Below are positions 665-51,318 of a stretch of DNA of 64,000 nt, piece after piece. Under the pieces are notes generated by a model. The model did not search any database, was not told where the DNA came from, and saw nothing but the letters and a program-made list of their open reading frames with translations. Made by a program: the position numbers and the translations under genes. Source of the stretch: Amoebophrya sp. A120 (Eukaryota > Protista > Dinoflagellata); the NCBI GenBank assembly GCA_905178155.1, contig CAJINV010000011.1, positions 2,838,485-2,902,484 of the forward strand. Direction: 5' to 3'. Positions within the stretch are counted from its first letter, which is position 1. Each line of letters starts with the position of its first letter.

Positions 665-1363
665 TTACTTTCCACCACGCGGGGCCTGGACCGGGTCGCG
701 GGACGGGCGCTTGCGCACGCGGCGGGCGTCGGCGGAGCGGACGCGCACGATACGGGCGTGGATGGCGCAGGACACGCAGTACTGCTGCTTGATGTACAGA
801 CGCGGCAGCTATCAAATGCAAAAATATCTGGGTCTGGAAGAGTGCAGACTTGTCATGCATATTTTGCAACATAGATACCAAAACGCCACAAAGACCTCAA
901 GGAACCATCCACAACCAAGAACCTTGGAAAAGTGGAGTCCCCGAAGTCATGCATATTTTGCAAGATGATTGATGCCTGTAATGCATGATCTAGCAACACA
1001 GATTTTATTTAGAGGGCTTTCCAATGCCTACTCTGCATGAGAAATGCCCTCTCCGCATAAAAACACAAACTGGAGTTCTGTTGGTGGTCATGCAATACAG
1101 ATTTGCTTGGAATCTAAAGACAGCATTACAAGTTGCAACTTTCCAGACCCAGACATTTTTGCAATCCATAGCAGCTGGTAGGTGTCGATGGCGGACTGCT
1201 CCTTCAAATCACGCGCGGAGGAGGTATCAACGATGGTACGGACGACGAACTTGCGCACGGCCTTATCCTTGGGGACGGCACGGTAGCAGTTCGAGCAGCG
1301 CATGATGGCGGTGTGGCCACGGCCATGCTTGCTGCGTCCGTTGTTGCGGCGTTTAGACGGCAT
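665..1363 (-). CDS. RPS26: 40S ribosomal protein S26 (eS26), 2 exons
   Basis: [17 protein letters not shown]...[17 protein letters not shown] joins to [27 protein letters not shown] after removing the 810-1170 element plus one GCAGC copy; TAA at 665-667. Confidence 0.95.
810..1170. mobile_element. TIR introner, family A (tctgggtctggaa core); non-canonical intron of RPS26
   Basis: ~30-bp TIRs tatcaaatgcaaaaatatctgggtctggaa / ttccagacccagacatttttgcaatccata; direct repeat gcagc at 805-809 and 1171-1175. Confidence 0.92.
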
Positions 1364-2237
1364 CTTGTAATGAAGTGTAGGGTTGGAAGTAGATTATGAT
1401 CTACTTCGGGGTATGTCTCTACCGTGTTCTTTTGTTGTCCCTGTTTTTTGTGTAAAAGGAAGGAAAAGCGATGTGTGAGAAAAATCAAATTTTGTGCTAA
1501 GACGAGTTGTGATAGATACACGACTACCGTTGTAGGCAGTCTAAAATCGAAATCAAATCCGGGGAGAGTGGGGCAAGTTTTTGAGCTTCAGAAACCAACA
1601 ATTTAGATCTTCGCTATCGACTTTTCGAGCAGTATTTCGATCGGATCTCCTACTGCACAGGATCAGGAGCTTTAAATTGAGTGATTCGTATTTCCAAAGA
1701 TCTTTAGAAAATCCAAAATGTACTTGCTTTTTCGGGACAGCATTTTGCGACTCGGGAACTGAAACTGTGTTTGAAAGTAGATTTCATTCCTTCGATCATT
1801 GATTTTGCACCTGTAATTCAAATTACCGATCCGTTTCCTTTTCACTGTCTGGTGTAGTACAACAATCCTACGATCGCAATGCTTTTCTGGGATCATCTAA
1901 GAGAAACACTGCTACCCGAGCCAACTAGTTGCACCTTCTGCGTACAGTGCTGCAGCCCTGCAACTTCTTCGCGTCTATTTTTGTACTTCTGACGTCCGTA
2001 CTTTACTTATAGAAAAGGGGTCAACAACGCGGGAATGCTTCACTCCAGAGAAGCCACAGCTCCTCCGCTTCAAAAAATACTGTTCGGTAGTTTCCGGCGA
2101 GATATTATCAGGGCGTGAAAGAAGCATCAAGTATTCACACTAGGACAGGGGAGTTGTTTTTGGGATAATTATCCGAGTCGCAGTCTGTACGCTGCTGCAG
2201 GTGGAGGAGCACGAGCACAGTATGATCCACGACGACC

Positions 2238-12534: not shown

Positions 12535-14407
12535 TCATATTTCCGCGAAAACCTTGTAGGGATTGAGAATTCCATTTGGATCCATGGTTTTCTTCAAACT
12601 CCGCATCAAATTTATCGCAGACGCGTTTTTTGAATACTGAATCGCATTCACTTTCATCAAGCCTATGCCGTGCTCCGCGCTGATGCTGCCATTGTATTTC
12701 TGCACCTCCGTCCACAGCCACGGCTCGAGCAAATCCTGGATCTTTGGGCTGAACTTCCTACTCGTCACGTTTAAATGGAGGTTCCCATCCCCCATGTGCC
12801 CGTACCCGACGATGCGGGTGGCTTGGTCGTGATTATCATTATTTCCGTCACGACCCTCAGTGCTGGACGATGTTGCAGTTCTTGCTGCGAACACACCGCC
12901 TTCGACTAATCTTTCCTCACACGCGCCCACGATTTTGTAGATGTCGGACAGGTTCGGCACGGAAACGTCATATTTGTAGGTGTAGCCATCGTGAACCAGC
13001 GCCTCGGCGATTCGTTCCCGCATCGCCCAGAAATCCTTTTGCTGCTGCTTCGACGCGGCAACGGAACCGTCGGTAATCATATCAAATGCAAATATGTCTG
13101 GGTCTGGAAAGGACGGGATTTGTGATGCTAGCTGTGGACCACTACCAGACAAAAATCTGTATTGCAAGAGAGGCGAAGGAGCCTCAGAGTCAGACTGTTG
13201 CCACCCGGAGTGGGCATTTCTCATGCAGTATAGGAATGAGCAAACCTTCGCGAAAGCCAAAGCTGTCATGCTAGAGCATGCATCACAGGCACCGGGAGCC
13301 ATGTACAATTTGCAGCATGACAAACCCCCTAAATCTTCCAGACGCAGACCCAGACATATAAATTTGCAATGCATAAATCAAATCGCTTGACGATTCCAAA
13401 AAGGATTCCAGCTTCTCCTGGTCATGCTCGCCGTTCCCGCCGCTGGTTTCGACCAGCACCGCGAAAAAGTTTTTGTCCTCTTGTGGGTCCTCCAAGCTTG
13501 TTGCTGGAAAAAACTCTGGCGGCTTCAATTTCAGATTCTCGCTTGTGACCTTCACGCACCGACTGTCGAAGAATTCGAACGCGGAGAGAATTTCCCCGAG
13601 CTGCTCGCGTGCTTTCTTGAACAACTCCACACAGTCGTTATAGGAGCGAGCGCAGCAGAGTAACACGTTCACATCGTTCGGCAGCACCGGGCACTGAAAC
13701 GCCGCTTTCGTGATCACCCCGAGCGTCCCCTCGGAGCCGATTAACAACTGTTTCAAGTCGATTCCCGTGTTGTCCTTTTTGTTTCGCGACAAAACATCCA
13801 CAATGGTCCCGTCCGCCTTCACGAACTCCAGACCGAGGCAAGAGCCGTGCAGGTTTCCGTACCGCAACAGCCGCAGCCCGCCGGCGTTCGTGGCCAGGTT
13901 GCCGCCCAATTGACAGCTGCCCTTCGCGCCCAGGTCGAGGGGGAAAAGAAGTTCTTTCTCATTCAACTCGGCGTTTGCCTGCTCGAGTATTTTTCCCGCC
14001 TCGAAGACCGCAACGCCCGCCTTTTCGTCGATCTTGATCGTCTTGTTCATTTTCTCCATAGAAAGCACCACTTCGTCGAATACGGGCACGGACCCGCCGA
14101 CGAGGCCCGTGTTCCCGCCCTGGGGGGTCACCGCGAGTTTCTGCGCGTTGCAGTGTTTCAGGATTTTGGAAACCTGTCGAGTGGAACCCGGCCGGATTAC
14201 ACACTTCGATTCGCCTTTTACAATCCCCAGCCAATCCTGGTTGTACTTCGTTAAGTCGTCGTTGTTTGCCGCCGTGAAAACGTTGGCCGCGCCGCAAATC
14301 TCCTGGAATCTTGCAATGTCGGGTGGCTTAAGCTCGTTGAAGAGGTTGCTCCGCTGCAGATTCGCAGGACGACCGAAACGACGGAGGGACGAACAACGGA
14401 GGAACAT
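12535..14407 (-). CDS. D2HGDH: D-2-hydroxyglutarate dehydrogenase (FAD-linked), 2 exons
   Basis: PQGGNTGLVGGSVPVFDE, DLGAKGSCQLGGNLATNAGG, GHMGDGNLHLN, GSISAEHGIG, DPNGILNPYK; junction SSDLITDG restored across the 13080-13375 element. Confidence 0.92.
13080..13375. mobile_element. TIR introner, family A, in D2HGDH
   Basis: tat...ata ends; direct repeat aatca at 13075-13079 and 13376-13380; no register gives a GT start or an AG end. Confidence 0.92.
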
Positions 14408-15500: not shown

Positions 15501-18500
15501 CTACAGATACTGCACCGCCGCCTTCGTGTCGGCGAGCACGCTGGCCATGGTTCTCCTGACCTCGTCGGAGATCACCCGGCGCAGGTACTTCTCGAAGTTT
15601 TCGTGCTGAGCCGCCTGTGCCGCTTTGGTGTTGACGTTCAGGGCGTGTTTCAAAGTTTCAATTTCCAACCGCGCCCGCGCGACGTCCTTTTCGATGGTGA
15701 GCATTTGCGTCGAGTTCACCGGCTCGCGTACCTGCATGGCGGCGCGCACCAAGTCGTCGATCACGATTTCGCCGCGGTTGTCCACGTCCAGGATGTTGAA
15801 AAGTTCCTCCTGTTTCGCCGTGGACCCAAACGCCTGAGCGACGTACTCCGCCGGGGCGTCGGCTAACTCCTCCCGGTTGATGGTACCGTTTCCGTCCTTA
15901 TCCGTGTCGTGGTACAGCTTCCGGACCATGTTATCGAGTGCAAATATGTCTGGGTCTGGAAGATTCGGGGCTTGTCATGCGCATTTTGCATGACCCGTGA
16001 GGTCTGTGATGCTGGTGCTAGCATCACAGATTTTTTGAGAGCTTCTTGATGCTAATTACGCATGAGAAATGCCCTTTCTGCGTGCCAAGAGCTGACTTCT
16101 CTTGCTGCTCATGCAACACAGACATTTTTAGAATCCGCAGACAGCATTACAAGTTCCACTCTTCCAGACCCAGACATATTTGCAATCCATACATGTCCAG
16201 GTTCCGCATTTTTTCCTCCTCGATCTTGATCATGGCTTCCTCCTCCATGTCGCGGGAAATCTCGACCACGTTGTCCACGATAATTGCGGTAACCAGGTAT
16301 GCTGTGCAAAAATATCGTACTCGTAGTAATTGCAATCATGCATGTCAAGCTAAATCCGCACTACAAATTTTATTTCTCATGCAGAGGAAATTTGTATATG
16401 CATCTATACGAGTAGGTACGATGCTTTTGCATTGCATACCAGGTTGAAGATCGCCATGTTGGTCAGCAAAATGAAGCACACGAAAAACAACCCCAGGGCT
16501 GGGGCGTCGTTCATCTATCAAGTGTAAAAGTGTCTGGGTCTGGAAGATTGCAACTTGTCATGGTAAATCTGAAGCATGCAAAAATCTGTGTTGCATGAGC
16601 GCCAAAAGCTGCACACTTTTGACCAAGTTGGAAGGGAGTTTCTCATGCAGGATAGGCATGACAGAGACCTCGCAGACTCTGTCATGCTACGCCCCGCATT
16701 CCAGACCTCATGGGGCATGGAAAATCTGCATGACAAGTCTACACTTTTCCAGACCCAGACATTTTTGCATTTGCTATCATCACCAGCCGCGCAATGTAGC
16801 CCCACTGTTCCAGCGTCATGATCTGGAACAGGGTGAAGAACGACCCGAGCAAAGTGCCGAAGTACTTCTTGACCTCGTGGTCTTGGAAGGTGTCCCCCTC
16901 CTCGCAACAGTCTTGCCCAATCAAGCGCGTGAGAAACATGCCGCACATGAACAGGGCGACGCCCAGCAACACGCCCGTCCAAAGCAGCGCCCGGAAACTG
17001 CCGATAATTCCCTTGGCTAACAGGACGAGCTCCCGCAGGAAACGGAACAAGCGAACCAGCCGCAGGACGCGCTGTGATAGATCAGATAAGGAGATGACCA
17101 TAAGATTCTTTATAGCGCTACCACTCGAAATTAAAATTATGAGAGAGCTCGCAAAGAAAATAAACTGAACAGCTTGTCTTCTACGCGATGGGACCAGTAG
17201 TATAGTACCAAAAAGAAGTTATTCTCATAATGAAAAAAAAAACATAAATCATACCACAAGCCTGAGCAATCGGAAGATCCGCAAGACCGTAACCGACCGC
17301 AAGTCGCTGTCTTCGTCGGCGGCCGCGAACCTCAGGACCCAGGTGTCCAAAACCCCGACCGTGACGAGGAGCAAGTCGAAGCAGTTCCAGATGTCTCGGT
17401 ACCACCCGCAGGGGGCGTAGCAAATGCGCAGGAATAACTCGAAAAGAAATATCACGTTGAAAAAGGAGTCCGAAATGAATATTGTGAGGAAAAATCCCCC
17501 CTCCCCATATCCAAAACGAAATTTGTGTTGCTGTATTTGAGTACACAAATCGACTTGTATTGCTAGAAGGCCAAGAGACGCAGCTGCTCCCTCGTTTGCA
17601 GGCAATTTGTCATGCTGTTTTCCGTTTCCAGTTGCTTTCTGTCATGCTAAAGGCGCAAGGCTTTCCAACGCCAGCCAGCACTACAATCCGCATCTCTTCC
17701 CTTCTAGCATGACAACATGATTTGTGGTCACAAATCATGCTACACAAATCTCCCTTTCGATATGGGGAGGGGGGATTTTTCATTTTCATAATGAACCAGC
17801 CGATGTCGTCCTCGTTTATGAAATGCAAAAGTGTCTGGGTCTGGAAACTTGTGATGCAAGTCAGTCAATAGGAACAAATGCACTGTAATGCGCCGCCAAG
17901 CATGACAAGTTGCTTCGTGCTTCTGTGCTGCGTATCCCGCATGAGAAACTGCGTTTTTGCATGACAGGCGAGAGAGGCTGTTTGTCACCACGCAACACAG
18001 ATTTAAGGGCCATGCCAGATCAGCATGACAAATCTCGCAATCTTCCAGACCCAGACATTTTTGCATTTGATATCGTTCGCCTCGGTCCGGTTGTCTGTCT
18101 CGATCGCTAACACCAGTGCATTATCCTGTGTAAAAACGCCCCCAAAACCCAGAATTGTCATGCAAATACGCAATGACAGGAACATTTGCAATGCGCATCT
18201 CCATGAGAGGCATTTCCAGTCGTGTTTTGCTGGCATTTGTAATGCTGTAAACAAGATGAGAAAGTGGCTTTCTCGTGCGGCTTTCCTTGCTAGCCAGCAC
18301 TACGCTGCAGATGGAAACTTGTCATGCAGAACTCCCGAAACTTGGGGATTTGTGTTGCAGACTTCCCATCTTGACTATGGTGATGTGGGGACGTTTTTAT
18401 TACATGTGATATGCATTCACCAAAATCATGCAGGCAAAGAAGATGTCCGCTTGCGGGCGGGAAATCCATTCCACGCATCCCTTTTCCAGGCCGAGCGTCA

Positions 18501-21158: not shown

Positions 21159-21426
21159 TATCAAATGTAAAAATGTCTGGGTCTCGTCTGGAAGATTTTT
21201 AGATTTGTCATGCACATTTTCCATGACCCATAATTTCTGTGATGCATGCCGTAGCATCACAGATTTTTAGAGCGCTTTCTGACGCCTCTACCGCATGACA
21301 AATGCCCTCTCCGCTTAGCCAAAATTGCATTCCCTTTGCTGGTCATACAGTACAGATTTTTTTGGAATCGAAATGCAGCATCACAAGTTCGGACTCTTCC
21401 AGACCCAGACACTTTTACATTTGATA
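21159..21426. mobile_element. TIR introner, family A (host exon uncertain)
   Basis: tatcaaatgtaaaaatgtctggg...cccagacacttttacatttgata; direct repeat gtact. Confidence 0.88.
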
Positions 21427-21468
21427 GTACTAAACTCGGAAGACGTGTGGGTACGCCAGGTGCCGGCC

Positions 21469-22376: not shown

Positions 22377-22550
22377 TTAAATAAGTACAAATGCATATGC
22401 AGACATATTAGACAAAAATGGAATTTGTAATACCCTTAGGCCCCTTAAAATGCTATTGCTAGTAAAAGATACATGCTCGGCGAGGACCAAGTGCGAGTGC
22501 ATACTTACTAGAAGAAAAGAACAGGAGGAGGGACCACATCAGGGAGGAGG

Positions 22551-28500: not shown

Positions 28501-30293
28501 GCCGTTTAGTGTCTTCATTTTTGGCTAAAAATTGTACGTCACTACAAGTTGTACTCTCTTTGAAAACACCAGCAGGAGAGGAGGACGCAGCTCCTGCACC
28601 AGTTGGGGATTTTTTTTTCCTGTCCCGAGGTGGACCCGCCAGAAGCGATTGCGCCAGTATCACAGGAAAAAGTGTTAACGTTAACGGAATTTGTGATGCA
28701 ATACAGCATCACAAAACGTGCCCAAATTTGTAATGCATAACATGCACGCTGGGCAAAATTTGTCATGCTCATTTGCAATCCATGAAAACCGTTAACGTTA
28801 ACACTTTTTTGTTTCATAGCCAGCGGGGGCGGACCAAGAAGATCTCCTAGTCCGATCGCTTGAACAAAGGGGCTGTCGCGTCCTTTTGACGTCGGAGATG
28901 AGTTTTTACTTTCGTAATATAATCCCTGTAGCTGTTTGCTCGTGGTGCCTTGAGGCGGCTCCGCTATTTGTTGTAGTTGTTCTGCGTGTTGATCAATTTC
29001 ATCTCCGGTTCTTGCTCCTCCAATGAGGGGTTCGCGCTCTACCTGTTCCACCCCGCGCCAACATCGTGAAGACGACGAGGCCGGCTGTTCTACTCGTCGA
29101 CCGCCCGCCCGTCCAGGTGCGGGAACCGACATGAAGGAGCAGAGCGATGCGAGCGCGCGACCACGACGGGGAACGATGGGACAACTCTCAAACTTTTTCG
29201 GCGATAGCAGGCCCCTCGTCTCCGAGGACGAAGAAGCATTTGCTGCGTCCTCATCCTCGTCATGAAACAAACAGACGCCTGCCGCACCCTGTTGGGTGGC
29301 CGGCGGGGCGGTATGGCGTGGCTGAACGCTACGACCACCTCCACCTGGCACTACCTGCTTCGAACGCCCGCCCTTCCGCAAGCGCAGGGTGTGATTGCTG
29401 CGCAAACTGGCGTCCCGCGCAGACGACTGCATCAAAAGCGCAGGTTCTTGTGAAGACGCGTTTCTAGCTTGCGAAGTAGAGGTCGTTATGTTGTTGAAAT
29501 AAGCGCGTGCCGCTCCAGGAAGCGCCAGCAGTTCTATCGGGGACTGGTCTTCAGAGTGGAATGGTGCCTCTTGCTGCAGCACCGTCTGCAAGGTCGAGGG
29601 CGCCGTGTAGTGTCTGCGGAACACGCTCATGTCAATTTGTGCTGCTTCAAACGCTGCATTCGAAGTACACATGGTGCAGATCGCGTCGGGAGATGACATG
29701 GGTCGCGGGAGATGCGCTGGAGGCGGGCCAATTGAAGCTTCTTGCTTTTTGGCGATCTGAAGAACGGGCTCTTGCCCGGATTCCGAACAACAAGCGTCAC
29801 GAAAAACGTCTTTCGTGTAGTTCTTTTTGTTCGGCTCGGACGGCGAAGTAGGAGTGCCGGCATTCATCATCAGCTCGACGTCGCTACTAGCAGTCTTGAC
29901 GCTCCCCTCGTCCACGGCCATTGCCGTGGCGTTTAGAGTGGCTAAGTCGTTAATGACGTTTGCCAGAAGGTTCGCCGTTAGTTCCTCGAGCTCGACGTCT
30001 TCGTCCTGCCCCGGTTTAGTATTTGGTGCTGCTTCAACTGGTAGAGATGCAGCTGGTGGTGGTGCAGAAGAAGTACTACTCTCGACTACTTCCACCTCGT
30101 CCAGAGCAGGAGCTTGGTAAGCTTGCTCGTCGGTGTTGCTTTCGTGATAGGACCTCGGAGAAGCTCCAGCGCCACTAACGACGCGAATCGTGATAGGATT
30201 GCACAGCAGTTTACTTGCCACGGCAATTATTCCCGCGATATATAACAGCGACGCAGCATGAACATGCCGCAGCCGCTTCTGCGTGTCGATCAT
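22551..30293 (-). CDS. Very large low-complexity (Ser/Gly/Ala/Gln-rich) protein of unknown function, ~6 exons
   Basis: Five long minus-strand ORFs join in frame across introners at 28658, 25182, 24504 and 22593 and a GT-AG intron at ~26235-26478; no recognisable domain; both ends uncertain. Confidence 0.55.
22593..22876. mobile_element. TIR introner, family C-like
   Basis: tatcctgattaaaaacgtccccac / gtggggatgtttttgcacgggata; flanks tttgt / tttat (1 mismatch). Confidence 0.82.
24504..24617. mobile_element. Decayed family A introner
   Basis: tatgcatcgcaaat...ccgggtctga / cccagatcgatatttgcaatgcata; direct repeat lost, frame restored by removing element + 5 nt. Confidence 0.7.
25182..25375. mobile_element. 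Decayed family A introner
   Basis: tatgcatggcaaatatgtct / ggacatatctaccttcata; flanks gtgaa / gaact differ, frame restored by removing element + 5 nt. Confidence 0.68.
28658..28818. mobile_element. TIR introner, family D (aaaagtgttaacgttaacgg core)
   Basis: Direct repeat gccag; junction PPLAQSLL in frame. Confidence 0.9.
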
Positions 30294-32435: not shown

Positions 32436-35400
32436 TCAGTCCTCGTTTTATCCCACGAGAAAAGTGTTACAGTTACACATTTGTAGGCAATTCAGCAACA
32501 CAAATGTCCCTGCATGAGAGAGAAAACTTGTAATGCAGAAATCCTACGGGAAAACACCTATGAAACGAGGCTTCTATGCATATCCGGCATGACAGAGCTT
32601 GTCTGTCTTGCTTGGCCTGCAACACAATGTGTAACTGTAACACTTTTTTTTTGCAATACGTTTTCGTTTCCACCCTCGGAAGGCACGGAGTCCTCCTCAT
32701 CGTGTAGATCCACTTCGTCCACAGCATCGACGAAATCCTCTTCATCATCGACGTGCACACCAGCAGCGGTGGATGTGGCTCCTTCGCAGAGATTTGAGGT
32801 CAGCGCCCCCGTAGCCGTAGACGTTCTTGCTGCATCAACTCGGAGTTCACATGCGCCGACGCTCGGTTCTTGTCCTGTGAGACCACTGGTGCTCGTCAAA
32901 AGCGGTGCCAAGTGAGTCGGGTGCGGCGCGGCGCTCGCCGCAAGCAAGGTTGGGGGCGCTGCATGTTGTGTAGGTACGAATCGGGATGGTGCAGCAAGGT
33001 GGGCATCAGGTATTGCACTGCCACCTGGTGCTGTATTCTGCATTGGCTTGGAGCCTTGATGTAGTTGCCAAGGTGTTATTGCAGTCATACTACCAGTACT
33101 AGTTGAATTTGTGCCGTTTCTGGCGCTCTCCGCCCCGCCCCCTGCAACTGCTTCTAGTTTTGTAGCGGGGACGACTACTGGCTGAACAACGGAAAAAGCA
33201 GGAGCGGAGGGCCGCGTGAGTTTGTCTTCACATGCAATTCTTTCGTCCTCCACTTGCATACTTGTTTCAAGGGTCGCCGTGCTAGTGCCGCCACTCTTCA
33301 TCTCAGCCGTAGTATTTTTGCCGAGGACGGTCGTATGTTTATTCGGGAGGACGGTGCTTGCGACATGCTGCCCGGCACGACCTTCCTGCTTCGCGTTTAT
33401 TCCTGTTCCTGTTTGCATCAAGTCCTCTCGTGAAGAAGATGTCGTGTAATAGCCCGGCGCAGCGGATTTTAAAATCGCACTGCGGCCGTGCGCACGCGGA
33501 CCAGCAGGAACTTGCTGCTGGCCTTGCTTTTTCGCCGGCTTGCTGTTGCTGTTTGGAGCTGCACTTGAAGCAGGCTTCACATACAGGTCAAAGACCACCA
33601 CAAGCGGTTTATGGTCGCTGCCTTGCTGCTCCTATCCTCTGCAAATGTATCGCACTCGCAGTAATTACAACCAAGCATGACAAGGCCCACCTTCTAATAT
33701 CTGATCTAGCATGACAAATTGTATATTTTCTTGAAAAAATTTGTAATGCAGTTCATACGTAGTACGATGCTTTTGCAATGCATAGCTCCGAAACGACCAC
33801 AATATCCAGCTCATCCACGTGAAGCTGGTCGACGGCGCCCCCGCGTGGCTGGAACAAGAGAACCCGGTCTGCCGCCGCGGGGAAGTGAAACCTGAGAAAA
33901 GGGAAGATGAACCCGTGTGGTTGTGCAATTGCAACCAGGTCAAAATTCTATTCAACGTTTATACGTTTTCACATCATGCAGCAGAGGATGACGCGCCGCA
34001 ACTCTCTCTGTCCCACTGCCGCTTTGATACAACATCAGCAATTTCTTCGTACCTTTTGAACCGCTTTCCCTCGTCGGCACGGTCTCTGTAGAGAGCGCCT
34101 GGCCCCTCAAACGCGGAAATTCGGTCCAGGGCGGCGGCGTAAGCGTCGCGCGGCTCTCCGTTTGCAGATGAACCTGTATTTGTGCAAGAAGAGTTCTTGT
34201 CTACCTCGAAATGCTCGGTGTTTGAAGAAAACGACACCACAGCCGCGGACTGCTCGTAGTAACTGCCGCTGCGCTATCAAATGGAAATATGTCTGGGTCT
34301 GGAAATTTGGAATTTGTAATGCTAGCTTTTCATACCTAGGAAATCTGTACTGCATAACCAACAAAAGTCGCGGCCTCTTTTGTACACAGTTTCTCATGCG
34401 GGCTGCCTATGAGATTTTGTTCTGCAAAGTTGTCATGCTGGGCTGCATTCGAAAGTGTTTCCATCATCCACATTCTAGCATCACATTCACAAGTTTCCAG
34501 ACCCAGACATATTTGCAATGCATATCCGCGTGCGCCGGTCCAGGCTGTTCGGTTGGTTCAACACGTGTGCCATGTTATCCTGTGCAAAAGTATCGTACGC
34601 GTATAGATGCAAGTCTTGCATTACAAATCTTTTTATTAGGGCAAATCCGCATGACAAATTCCATTTCTCATGCTAAGGAAATTTGTATTGCAATTTATAC
34701 TAGTACGATACTTTTGCAATGCATACATGTCTTCCACGGACAGCGGGTGTTTCTGCTCGTAGTTCTCATGAAATTTGTAGGTGACCCAGTGCTGGGTCCC
34801 GCACGCGGTCGAAAGGTCAATCCAGTTGCCCGTGCCCTCGACGAGGCGATTGGATATCGCTGCGCAGTACCGGCGGTCCCGCAGGGTCTCCGTTAGCAGG
34901 TCCTTCACAACCAATCGGCCTTGTTGTTTCGACGTCCCATACGTGCTGGTGTTCAGAGAAGACTTAAACTGGTGGTGGTGGTCCTGCGGAGATGTAGTTG
35001 AAGCAGTCGACGCGACGGCTCGCCCTCCGGCATGAAAGTTACCACCACGGCGCTGTTGTGGCGCTGCGGAAGTACTCGAAGTTGTAGTAGAAGCCCCGCC
35101 CGATGGACCACGACTATGTTGCATAGTTATTCCCGGATCGAACAGAAGAAGCGTTCGGGAGTTTACATCTCCCGAAAGCATCACCAGTGTGTCATTGTCA
35201 AGCATCCCGGCCTCGGCGGCGCGCGCCAGCATCCGTCGGAGGTTCCGCGCCATCACATACTTGCAGCTTTCCAGGACGTCATTGTTGCCGCGCGAAAGAG
35301 CATGCTTTTTCTCAGGCTGCGGCTGCGGAGGAACTGCATGTGAAGAACCAGCCTCGTGCGCACGTGCAAAGTTCGATGGAATGCCGTTGACCTCACCATT

Positions 35401-37668
35401 GCGTGGTCCAGAAGTACCGTTAGATGCGGTAGAAGGGCCAGAGCCGCCACTTTGGTAGTTGTAAAGGTTTTGACGGTAGAAGTCTGGCGGCTCCGGGACG
35501 ACCATAGTACGCGGCTGGTGCGGCCCATGCTGATACTGTGAGGAGCCAGCCGGAAGCGGCCGTATCCTGTCTGTACTACTTGGATGGACCGAAGTGGAGG
35601 TCCCTGTGTGGTTCATCTGATTGTACAACGACGAGGCCGTCGACCCGTTTATCGCAGATGTTTCCCCAGATAAACTCGACGTAGCCACTGGTGCGGCTTT
35701 CTTTCCCCTATCATCTACTCTAGACCGAGAATCAGAACCTCCCGCAGATGAACAAGACGAAGACGACGCAACAATATGATCTTCCGGCGCAAAATGACTA
35801 CTCCCGGGTACGCAGTGGGGGAAGTATTCTTCTCCGTTGCGCCACCCGACGTCGTACGTGTTTTGTTCGAGATGCCGCGCGATCTTTCCGATCGGGAAGT
35901 GGGCGCCGATGCACAGAATTTTCACCTTGCTGTTGCGCAGCCGGAGTTCCTTGCCCGAGAAGGCCTTCTTCGGGTTTGGAATGTTCTCGTGTTCCGGGCA
36001 AATGCCGAAAAACGTCTTCGGCTGTGGCTGGAACACGGAGCTCTTCGCGAGGAGCAAGGTTTTCAGATTTCCGTTCCAGTTGGTCGCCAGTTTCGCGGTC
36101 AGCGACTGCCACATGCCCCCGCCGAATTTCTCCTGGTGCTCGATGCGCGTGCTATGAGAGTGCACAACTCCCCGTCCCCCTCATTTGTATGGCAAGAACA
36201 GCAACACAAACAACAGCAGCTAAGTGCCTTCCGCATGACAAACCGGACATGGATTGTAGTCCTGTGTGAGTGTCCGAAACTTGTCATGCAAAAAGTGCTT
36301 AAAGCCACCAAGTAGATTCGGTATTTTGCATTACAAATGAGGGGGAGGGGGAGTTGTGCAATCTCATACGCGTTCGTCTGCTCGCAGATGTCCAGTCCGC
36401 GCTTGTCCGCGAGCTGCTTCTTCCACTTCTTCACAAAAGGGGTCAAAGCGCTCTGCGTCTCCGCAAAGGAGAAAAAGATCAGATCGCGGGTCGTCGCAGG
36501 GGACTCGATCATGTCAGATGAGGATGCTTCTAGGGCGGGGGGCATCTCGAAAGAACGACCTCCAAATCGTGAAACATTGCTCGCGGGTCCCCTTGGGTTT
36601 CTTGACATTTGGATTTGGTCAACAGCATAATCATGATACACGTGTGCACTACTACTACTCCCGTTGGTGTTTGTCCTTACAAATTGCGGTTCAGAATTTT
36701 GAGAGCCTGGTGGCTGTTGATGCTGCGACGACGTGTAATCAACACGTCGATTCGGCTGCTCGTGCTGCAGTGCAGTGTGGTCTGTACCACTTCTACCGGC
36801 GCTCCACCTTCCATCCGGCGGAGGGCCTCCCGATGTGGTGCGAGTGGTCGTGCTACTTGAGGTGCGCGACGCGAACGATACCCGAGGACCCGGGAAAGGA
36901 GCATGGTGCTGTTCTGCGAACAAGATCGAAGATGAGCGACCTCCTGTCTTACAACTAGTACTCGAACACGAAGACGCGGTCGACGACACCCGCGCGAGGC
37001 GGTGAATCCCTTTCTTGAACTGCACCTGCTCTTCTTCCTCGTCGGTGGACGACACAGACGAATCCGAATCCGTAGAGGAACCGCCTCTACTTTTATTCCC
37101 TCGTCCCGCATAATACAGCCGATCCCCACTTCCATGCACCGTCCCCCCACCGCGGACCGACACGATCGAAGCAGTGAGACGACGGCGCGGGTTCTCGTTC
37201 GGTAAACCAGAGGTGGAGTTGTGGTCGTCTCCACTAGGAGGGGAGGCGGAAGTTGCAGCCAAGCGGGAATGATTCGACGGCGGGGTCGTGTGCGTAGTCT
37301 GTGATGTTGTAGTGGCTGTGCCTCCACCTGCAGACGGTGGTTTTCTGCAGCTTGAGCGTCCCTGGCTGGATCTGGTCGGCTCCTTCACTACATTTTTGCC
37401 CCTACTCGCCTATCCAGGAAAAAAGACCGATACCCATCCATTTTTTGCATGACAAATACAGGATTTTATGCACGTTTTGCATGGCAAATTGGCTGGGGAT
37501 TGGTGTTTTTGTGGATATCGCCCCTGGGTCTTCCACTTCCACGGGAACAGGCACCAACAGGTCGGTGATCTCCAAATTACTGTTGTTGCCCATGTTGAAA
37601 GTGTACACACAGCAGCGGATCCGCTCCCCTAAGTCGTGGTGGTCGTGGAGGCCAGCATCATGCTCCAT
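32436..37668 (-). CDS. Inositol polyphosphate 5-phosphatase-like (EEP fold) protein with long low-complexity inserts, 8 exons
   Basis: Motifs in the expected order: VYTFNMGN, CIGAHF, SGDVNSR, VTYKF, PAAADRVL, SDHKPL; six introners plus GT-AG intron 33892-34052. Confidence 0.8.
32449..32658. mobile_element. TIR introner, family D-like (aaaagtgttacagttacac core)
   Basis: Direct repeat cgttt; lies two codons before the stop. Confidence 0.88.
33633..33784. mobile_element. TIR introner, family B
   Basis: Direct repeat gctcc; junction VSEQQGSDHKP in frame. Confidence 0.88.
34275..34524. mobile_element. TIR introner, family A
   Basis: Flanks tgcgc / tccgc (1 mismatch); junction TRSGSY in frame. 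Confidence 0.88.
34576..34725. mobile_element. TIR introner, family B
   Basis: Direct repeat catgt; junction EDMAHVL in frame. Confidence 0.9.
36153..36368. mobile_element. TIR introner, family E (tgcacaactcccc.tccccctcatttgta core)
   Basis: ~37-bp TIRs; flanks cgtgc / cgcgt (3/5 match); removing element + 5 nt restores TNARIEHQ. Confidence 0.85.
37411..37517. mobile_element. Short TIR introner (107 bp)
   Basis: tatcca...tggata ends; direct repeat tcgcc; junction PGASRGKN in frame. Confidence 0.85.
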
Positions 37669-38680: not shown

Positions 38681-41600
38681 TCAGAACTGCAGCGGAATCA
38701 GCGCCTCCTCGATCGCTCCCGTGGGCGCGTCTGCGGTGATGTCGACCACTTTTTTCAAGCGGGTCAGTTTTGATTCGTTATAAATCAAATGCGACATCGG
38801 TCCGCGCAGCTTCGCCTCGCGTGGTGTTTCCAGCGCTGCAAGCAGCGTGTTATTCTGGTTATTCATTTTCGAGCCGTTCCTACCTGCGTCGTCGACCAGA
38901 CCCTTGCTGCTCGTCGTCCCCCGCCGTCCACCCGCGATGGTGGCCCGTGGATTCGGGCTTGCCTTCAAAAACGCGGGCGTCGCCTGGGCCATAGAGAGGC
39001 TCGTCCGCGCGTTAGCCGCCGGGCTTTTTGCAAGCGAGCCGGCGGCTGTTGTTGTTCCCGCGGAGCCGGGCCTTTGTACTACTACATCATCTTCGTCTCC
39101 CCATGGGTCGGCTTGGTTCAGCGTGTTGGTCACGACTTGAAACTGCATCGCGGGTAAGCCGTCGCGGCACCGCTGGATCATATCGCGGAGGTCGGCGTCG
39201 GAAGGAAGGTGGAAACAGGGCCAGGCCGGGCATTCCCACACGACGGACGGAGCCTTCAGCTCCGCGTTTCCGAGGACTTCGTAGGCCTGTGGTCGTAATA
39301 TTCTTTTCGTCTCAAAGTCAAATGTTTTGCCTATCAGGTTCAAATGAGAAGTAGCACGTTGAAAGAGAAATAACTTCCCAAGGATCTTTCTCTTTGAACA
39401 ATAGGATCTTTCTCTTTGAACAACAAAGTTGACCTCAGCATTAACACGCCTTATACCTCCCTCTCAGCTCGCCACTCTCGAATTTCGCCCCACCAGTCCT
39501 CTAGTTGCTGTGCGTAGCCCCGCAAATGCGGCACGAGGTAGTAGCGCTTCATCCGGAGTTCTTGGGTTATGAACGCCATGCGCACGTCCGCCGGCTGCTC
39601 CAACGCGTGCAGGTGAGCCTGTTAGAGTCAGTCATGTTTTTGTATATGCGAACATCCGCTGGACTTCAAATGAGCATATGAACTTCGCAATCGTCATCAC
39701 GTCATCTGTGATATCGTGATCAAAAATAGCAATACATACCGAAAAGTCCATATCCAGATGATCCCCGGCACCACCCCTTCCCCCCTTGGCGTGATGTGGT
39801 TTCTCCTTAGAGTGCGTGACACTCCTTCGTCTCTGCCCGGTGGTCGCGGCCCCACCGTGGTGTGCTGCGGTCGTTTTGCTTGTGTTGTTATGCTTGTCCT
39901 TGCTTCCCTGCGCGCCGGTTGTTGCTGTGCTATGCTCTTTTTCCTTACTGCGCCTTGACGTGCTGACGCCGTGGTTCTGGAGTCCAGCGTGGGATCTCAG
40001 ATCGACCGAGGCGGTTGGATTATGATTGTTCTGATAGAAGTCCTTGTCTGCTGTATGTGTTGTTCCTCCTGAAGCATTTCCACCCGCCGCCTCTGCTTTA
40101 TTCTTATGGTCCTTCTTCGCATGGTGGTGGTGGTGGTCCTTTTTCGGCATCACTGTCCCTCCGTGCATCGCCACCAACTCCTGCAGCAAGATCTCGTGCT
40201 CCATTTCCAACCATCTCGCCGCAGTCTCCTGTCGGTGCCGTTCGAGTTTCTCGAAACTGCGGCGCCAAAACCGCTGTATTTTGATCATCGCACCGTGAAA
40301 TTTTCGGATGGTGATCATAAACTTCCCGCCCTCGCTCCACAACTTCATGCAGTGAAAAATCGCCGCCGCTTTTTTTCGCCGCAGCATTACCCGGGCCCGC
40401 AACGCGATCGGCCGTTGGATCTCGGCAAACCTTTTTTTAACGTAGTACTAACAGTGTTAAGTGACGACGGTGAAGTAGTATTTTTGGAAATGTTGAGTCG
40501 GCAATATTAATTTGAAGTGACGAGGCTAAAGTGATTTTTTCCATATGTTGCGTCGGCAGTTTTTTTGAAGGGCGAACTACAAATCATTATTCCGTAATCG
40601 TATACAGCGCTGCAGGACGAAGCAGTAAACAGAAAGACGAAAAGAGCATCTGCCTAAAAAAAACTTTACCTCGCCATGGTCGCGGGCTGTTGGAAATCCT
40701 TGATGAAGGCTTCCCAGGCGATGGCCTGCCGGCGCTTTTTCCGGAGCATTGATCCCACAGAAAAAAGCAGCAGGGAGGGCATATTTGTAATGCAAAAACA
40801 AGTACACAGAAGAATCTGTCATGGGCGGCCGCATAGCATGCTGTTTAGGATAATACGCAATGCAGATTTCTCTGTATATTCATTTTTGCATTACAAAAAT
40901 GACCTGCCTGCTTTTTTCTGTGTGCTAGCATTACCCGCAACGCCATGGCGATTTCCTCGCGCTCGGTCATTGCAACGGGCTCCTCTTTCTGTTCCCGGAG
41001 CTGGGTGTGCTTGCTGTCCATCTGGTCGAGGGGGATGGTCAGGGCGGTCAGCATGTACCAGAAAGTCGTAACGAGGTTTGTTTTCAGCTGTACATTCGTC
41101 TTGTCATGGAGAAGGTCTTCTTGGAGACTGATAAGTAGTGTTTTTCGAATTCGAACAAAGAGGAAGAACAAGAAAAACAAATGCAAATCATTTTACTGGT
41201 ACAGCAGATATTAAATTCGCACCGCGTCGCTCTACTTGTGCCTTCACGAGGCTGAAGTACAACTTGCACTTACCTGATCGCCAAAGGATTTCCCTCCGTC
41301 ATATTCGTCCTTTTTATCCCCGCAAACGCAAATTTCCCGTCCGCCCCCGCTTTTGGCGACAAGAGACTCGCTCGAGACGTCGGCGACAAGGGTGACCGCG
41401 ACGACGCCGGGGACGCGCTGGCTCCACCGCTATCCTGTGCAAAAGTATCGTAAGTACTCGTTGTGTTGCAATCATGCATTACAAATCCTTTTCTTAGGGT
41501 CAATCCGCATTACAAATTTCATTTGTCATGCTGAGGAAATTTGTCATGCATTTATAGGAGTACGATACTTTTGCAGTTCATAACCGCCTCCCTTCATGGA

Positions 41601-43494
41601 TCTCGGCGATCTCGAGCGCTCCCGCTTCAGCGAACTGGCGGACCGCTTCACGTACTCCCGTTCCCACTGCATGATCTTTTCCTGCATCTGCTCCACCTTC
41701 CGACACTGCGTGTCGAAAATTCGCTTGTTCAAAAGCGCGTTTTGCACCCGCAAGCGGTGCTTTTTCGCGTCGGGTAAAAACTGTTTCAGCGACTCGGTCG
41801 ATTGGTTCTTCGCCATGAAGTCGCATCAAGAGCAAATATGTCTGGGTCTGGAAGAATGCATGTTTGTCATGCTTGGCTGGCATGATTCTCAAATCTGTCA
41901 CGCACGTTACCCAAGAGCCCGATTTGTCTGTCATGCAGAGCCGCAGTTTGTCATGCAGAATAGGCAACACCTAGAAGGTGCTCAGAAACTTGTCATGCTG
42001 AGCCAGCACTCGTGGCCTCCTCAGGATACGCCACTCAGCATCACAAGTTTCCAGACCCAGACATATTTGCAATGCATAAGTCGTGTTGGTGAGTGATCTT
42101 CCAGGGTAAAGGGGACAGCTTATTCAGCTTTAACGGCGGGAGGTCGATAAAATTGTTGTTTCGCGACGAGCTACTGTTCGAGTGGCTACTGCCTGCTCCG
42201 AAGAAAGAGGAAAAGTCGTTGCTGGGGTCGAACTTCGTGCTGGAGGTCCTGGAAAGCGTGCGCCGCGGGGAATCACCGGCGGAGTTTAGAAGGGTTGGGT
42301 AAGAGGAGGTGCTGGTCATACCTGTGGAGGATTTCGTGATGTGCTTCGGCGTGTATTCAAAATTTCTGATTCTACAGAACAGAACGATATACAGTCTGGC
42401 ACTTCTATATATCCGTTGTGGGGCGCGGCATGGATGGTACTATTCAAAAATTTGCACCGAAGAAACTTTAACTTTTCTCAAAAACTCTGTACGCGTCACT
42501 CCAAACCCGCTTTTCTTGTTCCCCGAGCCGCCACTCGGCGTGGAGGAAGATTTGTTGCTTTTCACTTTTCCGATCGGCGTATTGGGCATATTGTCCTTCT
42601 GCGTTCCCCTTCTTTCCATTCCCGTATAATTACCGCCGTTCTTGGGCCGAAAGCCCCCGCCGGTGCTGTTTGCCGAGCCGGGCTTGGTCAATTTCCCGCT
42701 GTTTGTGAAGCTCGCGTGCGTCGTCAGCGTCTGCCGGATCCGCTTCGCGAGCCGCTCCGGTATCGGATTCTCAGACGTTACATTCTCATCTGTTACATGA
42801 TTTGTCATGCAAAACGACCATAAGCCGCCACACGATCAAGGTGCTTCGCATGACAAATTCTCGAAGGGCTAAACACCAACTGAATCTGCTTCAAATTTGT
42901 AATGCGAAGCGCGCAATCTTCCCGCGTTCACTTTTGCTGTTCTTGCATCACAAATCCATGTAACAGTTGAGAATGTAACAGTTGAAAACACCATATCCGG
43001 CTCGTTTTCCTTCGGAATCCCGTTGGCGACCTGCTCCAAAATTTTCGTTTTGGACGGCGAGCTGCCGTTCCGGTTGCTGTTCATAACGTATGCATTGCAA
43101 AAGTAACGTACTAGTTCTAGTATGAATTGCATTACAAATTAGCCCAGCATTGGAAATGGAATTTGTAATGCTGTTTTACCTTGAGAACGAGATCTGTATT
43201 GCATAAATGCAATTACTACGAGTACGATACTTTTGCACAGGATATAACGAGCGTGGCGTCGATCCCGAGTTCGGACTCCGGACAATTGTACTTGGCCACG
43301 TAGGGGTTGTGCAGCGGCGACCCGGGCGGGCTCCACTGCGCGTTGAAGGTCAGCTGCGCACGGGCCTTCGGGGAGCCCACCGGCGCCACCGCGGTTGTGG
43401 AGGTCACACTCCATTCGGACTGCTCGTTCCGGTTGCCGCCGAGGTGGAGCAGCAGGCCGGGGCGCTCGCGGCCCCGCCACGAGGTACTAGTCAT
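38681..43494 (-). CDS. Hypothetical protein with an IQ-like motif and predicted coiled-coil stretches, ~11 exons
   Basis: Exons join in frame across five introners and five GT-AG introns; MIKIQRFWRRSFEK IQ-like motif; start uncertain. Confidence 0.65.
40751..40927. mobile_element. TIR introner, family G (cacagaaaaaagcag core), degenerate ends
   Basis: Direct repeat gcatt; ends gat...cta; junction LRVMLRKK in frame. Confidence 0.8.
41431..41582. mobile_element. TIR introner, family B
   Basis: Direct repeat accgc; junction MKGGGGAS in frame. Confidence 0.9.
41824..42078. mobile_element. TIR introner, family A
   Basis: Direct repeat agtcg; left end reads cat instead of tat; junction QHDFMAKN in frame. 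Confidence 0.9.
42761..42995. mobile_element. TIR introner, family F (gttacattctca.ctgttacatg core)
   Basis: Direct repeat tccgg; junction ENEPERLAK in frame. Confidence 0.9.
43089..43244. mobile_element. TIR introner, family B (opposite orientation to 34576 and 41431)
   Basis: Direct repeat taacg; junction TLVMNSN in frame. Confidence 0.9.
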
Positions 43495-45011: not shown

Positions 45012-45179
45012 TTTGCGGGGGGAGTCGTGATTAAGAGGCGCTGCCCCACCGCAGCTCTTTCGTCATTGATATTGTTCGACTTCTACTATGAGCTTGCGTC
45101 TAGCGCAGTGCATTGCTTAAGCAACAAGTATAGGTTTGATTTGTCATAGATTATGATTGTCTTTTTTGTTCGAGTTGCG

Positions 45180-47786: not shown

Positions 47787-50700
47787 TTACGCGCCCGCGA
47801 CCACCGCGGCGGCGATCTTGTCCAGCAGGTGGATTTCGCGAATGTAGGTGCTCGAGAAGTCTTTCTGTTGCTTCTGGATGCTGATTTGCACTTCGCCGTC
47901 CTTCACGGAAAAGTTCACGTCGGTGCACACCTTCGGGAGACCGGGGAGGAGAGACGGTCCGCCAGCGTCGCCTGATAACAAGCAATGGTTTAGGATTTAG
48001 GAAAGCCGAAAGATCCAGATTGAAATTTCCGAGCTGTCTGGTAGTTGCTGAAGTGGAAAAACATAGCAAATTGGCAAAAGAAGTTTCTCGTATAATATCA
48101 TACTTGTGTCCATGACGATCTGGAGGTTTTTTGACTCGACGAAGGCGAGGCGTTCCTTGCACTCTTCTTCGTCCCGGAAGTTGCAGAGGCTGGTTAATTT
48201 GGCGAGGGAGATTTTACTGTACATGCGCAGGACGTTCCTCACCCACGGGACGTACCTCTGGCTCATCATCCGCCCCCAGAAGAGCTCCCACTGTCGCTTG
48301 TGGCCCTCCATGGAGTCCTGGCTACCCGTGAGGTCCTCGTCCAGAATGGTGACAAATCGCGGCTGAATCGCGTTGAAAAACTCGACTAATTTCGCCATCC
48401 ACGGCTTCGTGTTCATATCGGTTTCCTGTATGAATTTTTGGGGTTTAGTTATAGGAGGGCAGTTTGCTGCTTTAGCTTTGGAAGATAACTGTACTTTTGA
48501 CACCGACATACAGATCGATATGATCTGTGCCGACATGACTCCTGTAGGCAGTGGAAAGTGCAGCTGGTGGACCAACGCAAGGGAGAACAAGAGACTGAAG
48601 GCTTCTTTCCCTTGCTCTCTCAAGAATGCATGTTACATTTTAGCATTAGCAAGACATCGGTTCAACATTAACATCAATTTCATGTCTCCAAAAGATACCG
48701 GTCCCGCGACGTCTTTGCTGCCCCAGGTTTTCAGAACCTTAATGTCGTCCGCGTACTTGTCCGCGCACCAGTTGGCGACGTTTTCTTCCGGGATGCACTG
48801 GTACCCGTCCGGGGAGAACACCTGACAGAGGACGAACAACCTGACCATGCGGTCCTGCTGTTTCATCAGCTGTCCGGCGTACTGTTCCTGCAACGGCGGG
48901 AACCGCTGCAACTTCTGGATGAAGTGAAGGGTCTGTTTTGGTCGGGTTTGGTTTCGATTGGACATTCATTTGTATTTATCGCCAGGCTACTTCACAACTA
49001 CATGCACTCTGGGTCTGGTATCTTGCCATACTCATTTCTCAACGGTGCATTGAAAGAACTGAAGAAACAGCATGAGAAATTCGTATTCGTAAACACAGCC
49101 ATACAATTTCTATTTTTACCTTGGACACCACGGAGAGGCAGTCGCTGTAGCGTTCGGACATGAAGAGAGAGAAGGCGACAAAGTAGCAAAAAGACACGTG
49201 CGCGGCGGGGCAGCGGTAGTAGAGCGCGTTTTCCCAGCCGAAGTCGAGCTCACCCACACGCTTCAGCGCAACGTCGTATTCACCAAGCATCAAGTGGTAA
49301 CGAACCTGCTGGATCTTCGCGAAGTAACCTGTGGCAATTCCAATTTTTGTGTTTATGCATTAGAAATGTTTTTCGGAAGCGAAACCAGCATTACAACAAA
49401 TTCCACTTGTCACGCGGAGCAAAGCCAAAGTTGTATATGCAAAAACCTAAATACCTAAGAATTTGGCTTGCTCGGAGATCCCGCTGACGTCTCCCTCGTC
49501 GATGCCCTTTTCGATGCGGATAATGGCGTCGATGTTGCTGCCCATTACTAATCGCTTCAAGGTGTAGAACACTTCGCCGGAGTCGAAGACGTTTTTCTGC
49601 TCCTTTACAATGTCGAAGTCCATCAAGGTTTGCCGATTCACCGGCACGGAGGCCTGGCTCGGGTCCTGCTCCAACTGCTTTTGTAATTTCGCCCGCTGCT
49701 GGGTGACCTTGGCCTTGAAGAAGCAGTAGGTGGTGTAGTGGTACAGAAATTCGTCCAGCATCTCCCACAACCAGCAGACGGGGATCACCTGTAATAACCC
49801 GGTGGGCGGCTGCTGTCCGTCGGAAATAGCCTGCAGGTCCTTGCCAACCCGGTCGAAAATGTCTTGGTAGTTGTTCCACGCGTCCACGCGATCCATAGCG
49901 GTCACATGCTTGTCCAATCTGGTAGATAGTTTTTAGATTCCATTTGTCATCTACGTACTGGCGAACATTCCTGCATCCAGAAATATTTCCCGCGTTGGGT
50001 TTTTTGAACTAGGAAGTATCCTCGAGCTCGAGACTCTAATATGCATGAGAAACAAATTCATAGTAAAGTCAAAGAAAGTTACCTTGAGAACAAGTGTCGG
50101 TAGTAAAGTTCCTTGTAGAGAAGGTGCACGTTGTGGTTGTCAGAAAGGCAGGCGCGGGCATCCTCCAGAGACGGCCACTTCTGGTTTTTACCTGTGATGG
50201 AAGTAGATGTTGTCGCTTGCGGTCATCCATTTTTATGTTCTTACGCAAGTAGTACTACTCCCAGCATCAAAATATGCAACTACACAACAAGCACAGCAGG
50301 ACAAAATGTTGTTGTTGACTCCAAGAAAAATCATCATAGTACCGTGCTTCTGTCGAAAGATTCCCTCGGAGAGTTTTGGGTATTCCTTTACGAAAATATC
50401 CTCCACGGTGTCTGCTCTTGACTCCTGAACCGCCTGTGCAAAATCCTCGAGGAAGTTTCTAACCGTAATTGGCACGTCACCGTCTCCCTCACCCATCATC
50501 ATATCATCCTGCCCGCCGCGACCGCCTTGTCCGCCTAGGTTTGGGAAAAGAATTGAGTACTTTACTAGATAATTTTCGCAAAATTGAGTGGTAATACACG
50601 AATGCAAAACAGCTTCATCCATATTGCACTCGTCTCTTTCATCTGATCCTGATGCTGTTGATGTAATTGTAAATCTTGGCACTATAAAATTTATGGTCAA

Positions 50701-51318
50701 TACGTCCCCACTGTCCGCCCCTCTGGTTATTTCTTCTGTTGTCCCCGCCTCGGCTTTTGTTTTGAATTTTCTATGAACTGCAAAAGTATCGTACTCGTAT
50801 AAATGCATGACAAATTCTCTCAGCATGAGAAATAAAATTTGTCATGCTGATTTACCTTACGAAAAATATTTGTAATGCAAGACCTGCATTTATACGAGTA
50901 CGATACTTTTGCACAGGATATTTTCTGAAAGCCACCCATATCCTGCCCCATGTGCGCCTTGGAGGCCAGGTATCAAAAGGAAAAATCCCCCCTCCCCATA
51001 TCGTCTGAAAATTTGTGATGCGGATTTGTGACCTCAAATCCTGTCTGTCTTGCAAGAAGGCAAATCCAGAAAGCGTTCCGCATTTTTCAGGCGGTTTGTG
51101 ATGCTGTTTGCCTCAGAGCATACACGTTTGTCATGCTAGGCGCCTACGTCAAACCTCTCGGCTGAGGCTTGACATATGCCTGCATTCCTCTACTGCAAGA
51201 CAAATCTGATTTGTGTATGGAAATCCAGCATCAGAAACTTCGTTTCGATATGGGGAGGGGGCATTTTTCCTCATGATACCAAGTAGGCCTGCATCATTGC
51301 CTCTTGACTGTTGTCCAT
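47787..51318 (-). CDS. EIF3L: Eukaryotic translation initiation factor 3 subunit L, multi-exon
   Basis: LYKELYYRHL, WLWEMLDEFLYHY, MLGEYDVALK, YFVAFSLFMSERYSD, VRNVLRMYSKISLAKL, DVNFSVKDGEVQI; two 5' introners plus several GT-AG introns. Confidence 0.88.
50772..50920. mobile_element. TIR introner, family B (reverse-complement homologue of 41431-41582)
   Basis: Direct repeat ttttc; junction FQKIQNKS in frame. Confidence 0.9.
50971..51278. mobile_element. TIR introner, family C
   Basis: Flanks ccagg / ccaag (1 mismatch); junction YLASKAH in frame. Confidence 0.88.

Follow-up and report, generated by a model that had tools for sequence, protein, structure and literature searches.

A 64,000-nucleotide stretch of the Amoebophrya sp. 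A120 contig CAJINV010000011.1 (the window) contains 26 foldback elements of 107-361 nt between positions 810 and 51278. These are short copies of inverted-repeat transposons, flanked by 5-nt target duplications, and RNA-like contigs lack them together with five adjacent nucleotides (element+5). They are A120-type introner elements as described by Farhat 2021 (PMC7789003; this and the other papers cited were available in part, and comparisons refer to those parts), a class that is already known and whose occurrence in Amoebophrya the first-pass annotation of the window had rightly noted. What is new is a three-letter code at the element ends that is polar with respect to transcription, and a bounded splice register. 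We lean towards removal by a modified spliceosome, in which a stem would bridge the intron ends, an N-U-A sequence would serve as donor, and an invariant A would act as lariat branch point 7-8 nt before the junction.

Foldback elements and their absence from RNA-like contigs

The elements were detected by two inverted-end scans, the loosest two (33633-33784 and 37411-37517) partly by reading the sequence. They end in TAT...ATA, with one-base variants confined to elements 5, 20 and 22. Their terminal inverted repeat (TIR) cores form 12 groups (sizes 8, 6, 2 and 2, plus eight singletons), and identity within families is 72-87%. Exact 5-nt direct repeats, taken as target-site duplications (TSDs), flank 20 of the 26, the exceptions being elements 10, 11, 12, 16, 18 and 26. 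None of the 26 offers GT-AG in any of the six possible registers; in D2HGDH these read TA-TT, TT-AT, TT-GA, AT-TG, GA-AT and TG-TA. The first-pass annotation had listed the same 26 elements without GT-AG, at least six TIR families, TAT...ATA ends or a one-base variant, a usual 5-bp repeat of no consensus and a D2HGDH element with neither GT start nor AG end, and this description was borne out throughout.

810..1170, minus strand: element 1, in RPS26, family A, TSD GCTGC (sense); putative donor U-A at 1170-1169, predicted branch A at 812
13080..13375, minus strand: element 2, in D2HGDH, family A, TSD TGATT; predicted branch A at 13082
15932..16191, minus strand: element 3, in the Ion_trans/EF-hand channel gene, family A, TSD ACATG
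16298..16438, minus strand: element 4, family B, TSD CCTGG
16516..16776, minus strand: element 5, family A, TSD GATGA, 5' variant TAG
17480..17790, minus strand: element 6, family C, TSD TTCAT
17817..18072, minus strand: element 7, family A, TSD AACGA
18122..18411, minus strand: element 8, family D, TSD ATGCA
21159..21426, no strand assigned: element 9, family A, TSD GTACT, without coding flanks (intergenic or untranslated region)
22593..22876, minus strand: element 10, family D, imperfect TSD ATAAA/ACAAA, 12 codons ahead of the stop
24504..24617, minus strand: element 11, singleton, degenerate TSD; left boundary ambiguous by 3 nt (24501 or 24504)
25182..25375, minus strand: element 12, degenerate singleton, 3-nt repeat only; frame open with +5
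28658..28818, minus strand: element 13, singleton, TSD CTGGC
32449..32658, minus strand: element 14, TSD AAACG, 2 codons ahead of the stop; skipped in an RNA-like contig (32443 to 32659)
33633..33784, minus strand: element 15, family B, TSD GGAGC; skipped in an RNA-like contig, present in a DNA-like contig (32625-34303)
34275..34524, minus strand: element 16, family A, imperfect TSD GCGGA/GCGCA; RNA piece ends match registers 0-1 only
34576..34725, minus strand: element 17, family B, TSD ACATG; skipped in an RNA-like contig
36153..36368, minus strand: element 18, imperfect TSD ACGCG/GCACG; RNA drops element+5 (registers 0-2), not element+7
37411..37517, minus strand: element 19, TSD GGCGA; skipped in an RNA-like contig (37405 to 37518), present in a DNA-like contig (36341-41495)
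40751..40927, minus strand: element 20, TSD AATGC, variants TAG (5') and ATC (3')
41431..41582, minus strand: element 21, family B, TSD GCGGT
41824..42078, minus strand: element 22, family A, TSD CGACT, 3' variant ATG
42761..42995, minus strand: element 23, singleton, TSD CCGGA
43089..43244, minus strand: element 24, family B, TSD CGTTA
50772..50920, minus strand: element 25, N-terminal part of eIF3L (Paf67), family B, TSD GAAAA
50971..51278, minus strand: element 26, N-terminal part of eIF3L, family C, imperfect TSD CTTGG/CCTGG
33892..34052, minus strand: canonical GT-AG intron (GTACG...CTCAG), sharing a transcript with elements 14-18

Removal of element+5 gives an open frame across 25 of the 26 junctions (all except element 9), the number claimed in the first-pass annotation, which had named RPS26, D2HGDH and eIF3L. 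The first two are supported by homology. In RPS26, exon 1 covers residues 1-64 of the solved eS26 chain 5xxu_a and exon 2 resumes at residue 66, the junction amounting to exactly one codon. The joined D2HGDH has 523 amino acids and is gapless at the junction against Amoebophrya A25 P0001, and removal of five extra nucleotides (d=5) scored best among 16 removal offsets; the junction lies in a variable region and is gapless in 25 of 118 homologues. The elements of eIF3L lie upstream of the Pfam match, and their support is frame continuity alone.

Four of the 11 listed sequencing runs were compared with window positions 32001-52000. The RNA comparison reaches elements 14-19; elements 1-13, including the register-informative 10, 11 and 12, fall outside the range, and elements 20-26 have no exon coverage in run X3. 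This run was called RNA by inference, no run that contains the window being on record as RNA; most of its intergenic bins are empty. The raw-read RNA runs X9 and X10 gave two reads each on the range, so the RNA evidence consists of contigs derived from complementary DNA (cDNA). A 3191-nt contig of X3 aligned in pieces at 32047-32443, 32659-33627, 34051-34269 and 34726-36147, and the contig stretches of 105 and 46 nt between pieces are the small exons predicted after removal of elements 15-17 (+5) and one GT-AG intron. A second contig aligned at 36484-37405 and 37518-37787. Element+5 was skipped at all six covered elements (14-19), with flat exon depth over the two contigs. In the DNA-like run X1, 30 of 30 bins were covered at about 45x outside elements, the summed depth rose to 150,000 in element bins, and contigs traverse elements 15, 19 and 20. 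Two checks proposed in the first-pass annotation are thereby answered in part: the junctions appear in RNA-like contigs at 6/6 covered elements, and DNA-like contigs retain the elements, with rare excision at the DNA level still possible among 708 further contig joints outside the inspected set.

Where the two TSD copies differ, the cut can be placed. We denote by r (the register) the count of upstream-copy bases that lie within the intron. Simulated piece ends match the observed ones only for r=0 or 1 at element 16, and for d=5 with r=0-2 at element 18, where a perfect 5-nt repeat at element+7 is passed over and the join is at +5. The X3 contig and the window show no base differences at either element. 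The register is therefore fixed to these bounds by two imperfect duplications: the RNA retains the upstream copy, and the donor cut lies 0-1 nt ahead of TAT (one contig).

Polar conservation of the end letters

A pattern first seen in the window's three variant elements was put to the test at other loci by strand-symmetric scans, with orientation taken from the flanks only. The 149 loci (L001-L149; 599 kb, partly overlapping, de-duplicated) were fetched by the family-A end pattern in a scan that covered 14 of 64 parts; all come from one public metagenome assembly, which may represent a strain other than that of the window. The TIR pattern gave no match in viral contigs. Among 339 elements found without requiring a repeat, 254 have an exact 5-nt repeat, while repeats of 4, 6, 7, 8 or 9 nt occur 0-1 times, and the base composition of the TSDs is near random. 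Positions 11-13 carry A in 93-98% of 678 ends, an A-run there being demanded by the scan. A codon model trained on window exons and run on the flanks only implied element+5 in 105 of 111 confident copies and in 211 of 254 at the loosest cut, where chance is one third; within the window it did so in 13 of 15. The families occur in both orientations (41 vs 52 by an internal marker).

The end letters were scored in 348 elements (20 in the window), with 236 non-window copies above a strict strand margin and with ends matching the search pattern dropped. At 174 transcript-5' ends, variants numbered 0, 0 and 7 at T1, A2 and T3; at 179 3' ends they numbered 9, 3 and 0 at A(-1), T(-2) and A(-3). This polarity is significant (Fisher p=9e-5; sign test 16:0, p=1.5e-5), and the four variant ends in the window obey it too. 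No asymmetry is seen at positions 4-20, and the free end positions vary by about 4%, similar to the TSD mismatches (41 in 252 x 5 sites). All three variants at -2 are U to C, which is weakly in line with A-Y after a branch A. A strand-specific mutation bias was considered as the cause of the polarity and rejected: T1 and T3 share base and strand, as do A(-1) and A(-3), and the members of each pair behave in opposite ways.

All 26 elements fold beyond their shuffles (z -2.7 to -16.9), as compared with -1.8 to +0.9 for eight canonical-intron stretches. Positions 8-24 are paired with P about 0.8-0.9, and the terminal three pairs (positions 1-3) are only about half formed (mean P 0.46-0.59). In the closed stem these pairs would be U1-A(-1), A2-U(-2) and U3-A(-3). 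Because one partner of each of these pairs is free to vary, with which the folding agrees, the end letters are read as identities and not as a closed helix; they form a polar sequence signal common to the elements. A transposase is blind to the direction of host transcription, and the polarity therefore points to selection at the RNA level.

All families also share an internal motif, GCAT[GCT]ACAAA, which the first-pass annotation had not listed; the elements (5,714 nt) contain 39 copies of it and the remaining 58,286 nt two. It was rejected as a splicing signal since it is equal in both orientations (127 vs 153), and it is probably a transposase site acting at the DNA level. With TIRs, a TSD of fixed length and no coding capacity, the elements have the features of miniature inverted-repeat transposable elements (MITEs). 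Three long family-A elements with perfect TSDs were seen, at L025:632-1465 (834 nt), L054:3862-4492 (631 nt) and L053:571-1051 (481 nt), with mostly unique interiors; long elements in general proved mostly to be two neighbours joined or to have unique interiors. The 834-nt element is close in size to A120 family 38 (808 nt) and resembles it in no other respect.

Two observations on the insertion sites stand on their own. In 213 oriented copies with perfect TSDs from L001-L149, the TSD starts at codon position 3, 2 or 1 in 105, 63 and 45 cases, a bias that persists under a mononucleotide target model and would be a phase-0 excess if the register is 1. Of the 41 TSD mismatches in loci and window, 22 are synonymous and 21 lie at third codon positions as against 36% expected, a pattern intermediate between one-copy and two-copy coding constraint.

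A proposed mechanism and its alternatives

In the modified-spliceosome reading, the long stem would bring the intron ends together and replace the end bridging of U1 type. The U-A at the 5' end would then serve as a relaxed N-U-A donor entering the catalytic core. A lariat would form through attack by the first A of the terminal ATA, and the 3' cut would be measured from that A. With r=1 the intron would start N-U-A-U-S and have the invariant A at -7; with r=0 it would start U-A-U and have the A at -8. We prefer r=1: most canonical donors of the window read GUA-N, and the invariant U-A would then fall on the usual +2/+3, leaving +1 free and +4 variable, which is what the elements show. A Viterbi parse gave GTA starts in 22 of 35 AT-rich predicted introns and, by manual count from the same parse, in 12 of 13 predicted introns of five recognisable genes. 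The donor model of this parse was GT alone and the parse miscalls in GC-rich genes; it was substituted for automatic canonical-intron logos, which were discarded as too noisy. Canonical introns such as 7608-7392, 5787-5654 and 49119-48933 start with GTA, and many have an A-rich ...ACAG or ATCAG end and no clear pyrimidine tract.

The palindromic TAT...ATA would supply both signals in either orientation, T1-A2 as donor and the complement of T3 as branch A, which would explain TAT ends in unrelated TIR families. A transposase supplied in trans, recognising TAT-N7-AAA ends and the shared GCATNACAAA motif, would have spread the copies.

Several observations weigh against this proposal. The register comes from one contig of one run of inferred RNA status and from two short pieces, and the piece-end convention behind it was deduced from perfect repeats. 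Registers 0 and 1 were not separated: at mismatched TSDs neither codon likelihood nor GC polarity nor stops favoured any of r=0-5, and target-site asymmetry gave no clear boundary signal after frame control. At looser strand margins one copy breaks the polarity rule (16:1 and 19:1), and one has a position-2 variant at its 5' end; the exceptions have weak strand calls and would conform if flipped. The other loci were fetched with the family-A pattern from a single assembly. The A at -7/-8 has no variant in 179 3' ends, and no U2-type branch consensus (CURAY) surrounds it or lies upstream of it, positions 4-5 being symmetric. A U2-type GT or GC donor with an AG acceptor was found, in any register, in 0/26 elements of the window and in 11 of 168 other oriented copies, with no selection for G at +1 or for an acceptor AG. 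No transposase was found in the 599 kb of loci, the 137-aa open reading frame (ORF) of the 834-nt element having no Pfam match, and no lariat, circle or end chemistry was seen in the contig data.

The strong stem in 26/26 elements and the lack of GT, AG or a branch consensus would also suit an endonuclease and ligase independent of the spliceosome (of the tRNA-splicing, IRE1/RtcB or RNase III-like type), which would bind the stem, read a few end nucleotides and make two staggered cuts; such a route has been proposed for the nonconventional introns of euglenozoans. In its favour, U1 was not found in A120 (PMC7789003), and Euglena introns with fixed spacers from a paired motif yield circles (PMC12501133, PMC11282704). 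A reader of a symmetric duplex should, however, conserve both partners, whereas in these pairs variation is confined to the partners of U1, A2 and A(-3), and the fixed letters fit donor +2/+3 and an A at branch distance. We regard this explanation as rather unlikely, and its variant with asymmetric base contacts as the main rival. The first-pass annotation had proposed that the closed stem is recognised instead of donor and acceptor dinucleotides. The part of this that stands is a strong stem joining the ends and removal of element+5 free of GT-AG. Recognition of the stem with no nucleotide identity read would suit the absence of a TSD consensus, the use of both orientations and the 12 TIR groups; the terminal pairs are nevertheless weak and broken in viable copies, and U1, A2 and A(-3) are invariant and oriented with the transcript (p about 1e-5 to 1e-4), which makes it improbable.

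Slightly more doubtful still are degenerate group III-like or self-splicing introns with a bulged A 7-8 nt from the 3' end and a protein cofactor in place of small nuclear ribonucleoproteins. In group III introns just the 5'-NUNNG and a bulged A within a pseudo-domain VI are retained (PMC3534033), and register 1 would read N-U-A-U-S; the elements, however, work in both orientations with unrelated internal sequences, G stands at +5 in only about 30%, no strand-conserved local 3' hairpin is present, and Rfam gave no match in the window. Hairpins with direct repeats are in general the profile of template-switch artefacts, and the RNA evidence is cDNA-derived throughout, so reverse-transcriptase template switches, or excisions at the DNA level, in genes that are not truly spliced were also considered. 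Such an origin is very improbable: at element 18 the join is made at +5 although a perfect repeat lies at +7, two contigs of flat exon depth lack six elements, RPS26 and D2HGDH require exact removal, DNA-like contigs retain the elements, and transcript-polar selection at the ends requires a function at the RNA level.

Known intron systems and the setting of the window

For A120, Farhat 2021 gives TAT-N7-AAA ends, border repeats of 3-5 nt (5-bp), hairpins and 29,850 copies, describes splice sites as variable with exact borders 'unknown', and lists nearly all spliceosomal proteins together with U2, U4, U5 and U6 (PMC7789003). The window's elements share TAT followed by seven looser bases and AAA, 5-bp repeats, a length of about 240 nt, many families, and RNA-supported removal side by side with GT-AG introns. 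TIR starts, direct repeats, removal from RNA with non-canonical borders (RNA status inferred) and genome-wide repeated families were all found. The anatomy is the same; added here are the register bounded to 0-1, the polar ends and the internal motif across families. For Amoebophrya we found no paper that reports a fixed register, polar conservation of the ends, a branch A or a common internal motif; Fig. 3 and the logos of S19-S25 in Farhat 2021 may show part of this. The nine predominant motifs of each strain all have T at +2 and, in A25, all start TT, with TIRs starting TTA (PMC7789003 Table S4; aligner bias is possible), so that an N-T-A donor may hold in both strains and the TTA ends of A25 may follow the same rule. 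Gozashti 2025 reports 58 A120 introner families and assigns most of 23/58 A120 rows to TIR DNA transposons (PMC12130899); family 38 is Ginger-like with '5-bp TSD, TA/TA termini' (PMC12130899 supplement file 8).

Nonconventional introns of Euglena follow the code 5'-N3CDG...CHGN5-6|R (PMC12501133). Like the elements, they are MITE-like with paired ends, no GT-AG, and fixed spacers from a short end motif, the 3' spacer being longer than the 5' one. The euglenid analogy of the first-pass annotation thus holds for the geometry and fails for the motif, which is CAG/CTG and base-pairs in Euglena, in contrast to TAT/ATA with independently varying partners here (PMC12501133). The ends in the window read TAT(C/G)...(C/G)ATA plus TSD, and the downstream exon start has no purine bias. 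Circles are the reported product in Euglena (PMC12501133, PMC11282704), whereas removal here is known from contigs alone. In Giardia the donor is VTATGTT, the branch point is fused to the 3' site (VCTRACACRCAG) and long introns are base-paired (PMC6679479). Giardia and Trichomonas resemble the elements in a relaxed first donor base, an invariant branch-to-3' distance (A at -8 in VCTRACACRCAG) and base pairing that shortens long introns; they differ in having AG and a CTRAC branch consensus, where the elements have neither and are palindromic transposon copies (PMC6679479). Introns of Fritillaria borealis likewise come from transposons with TIR and TSD, and their non-GT/AG introns are removed by an adapted U2 spliceosome (PMC13326754, PMC11282704); preferred AG-AC/AT dinucleotides and U1 are kept there, whereas junction dinucleotides are free here (PMC13326754).

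Genes are densely packed in the window, which is eukaryotic DNA, and every recognised gene lies on the minus strand: RPS26, Cwc15, cytochrome b5, D2HGDH (best matches Amoebophrya A25, 61%, and an A120 paralogue, 60%), an Ion_trans/EF-hand channel and eIF3L/Paf67. A further gene we take to be RPL13 from its own sequence. Two genes are related to splicing, Cwc15 and an ORF with a Prp3 C-terminal domain (2238-3518 and 43986-45062). Element 9 adjoins a perfect 71-nt direct repeat (21469, 22306) around a block rich in G/C runs (21159-22400). At 57280-61740 a GC-rich unit of 1326 bp is repeated in tandem, in about two copies and some partial copies; the block includes an inverted repeat of 111 nt (58130-58361) and another, long inverted repeat (58587-58885), neither with TAT ends; the ORFs tested in this block gave no Pfam match.

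The removal of over 60% of Amoebophrya introns without GT-AG has been an open question since 2021. The chances seem to us evenly balanced that Amoebophrya has a second splicing code, in which a palindromic end is donor and branch point at once, a hairpin takes the place of U1 and the junction dinucleotides are free. If so, U+2, A+3 and a measured branch A would suffice for the spliceosomal core, and such a transposon would be a perfect intron wherever and in whichever orientation it inserts, making itself harmless at every coding site, which would explain tens of thousands of new introns. The bounded register and the three invariant nucleotides point to the exact base for lariat-branch probing, by which spliceosome and endonuclease-ligase would be told apart in one experiment.

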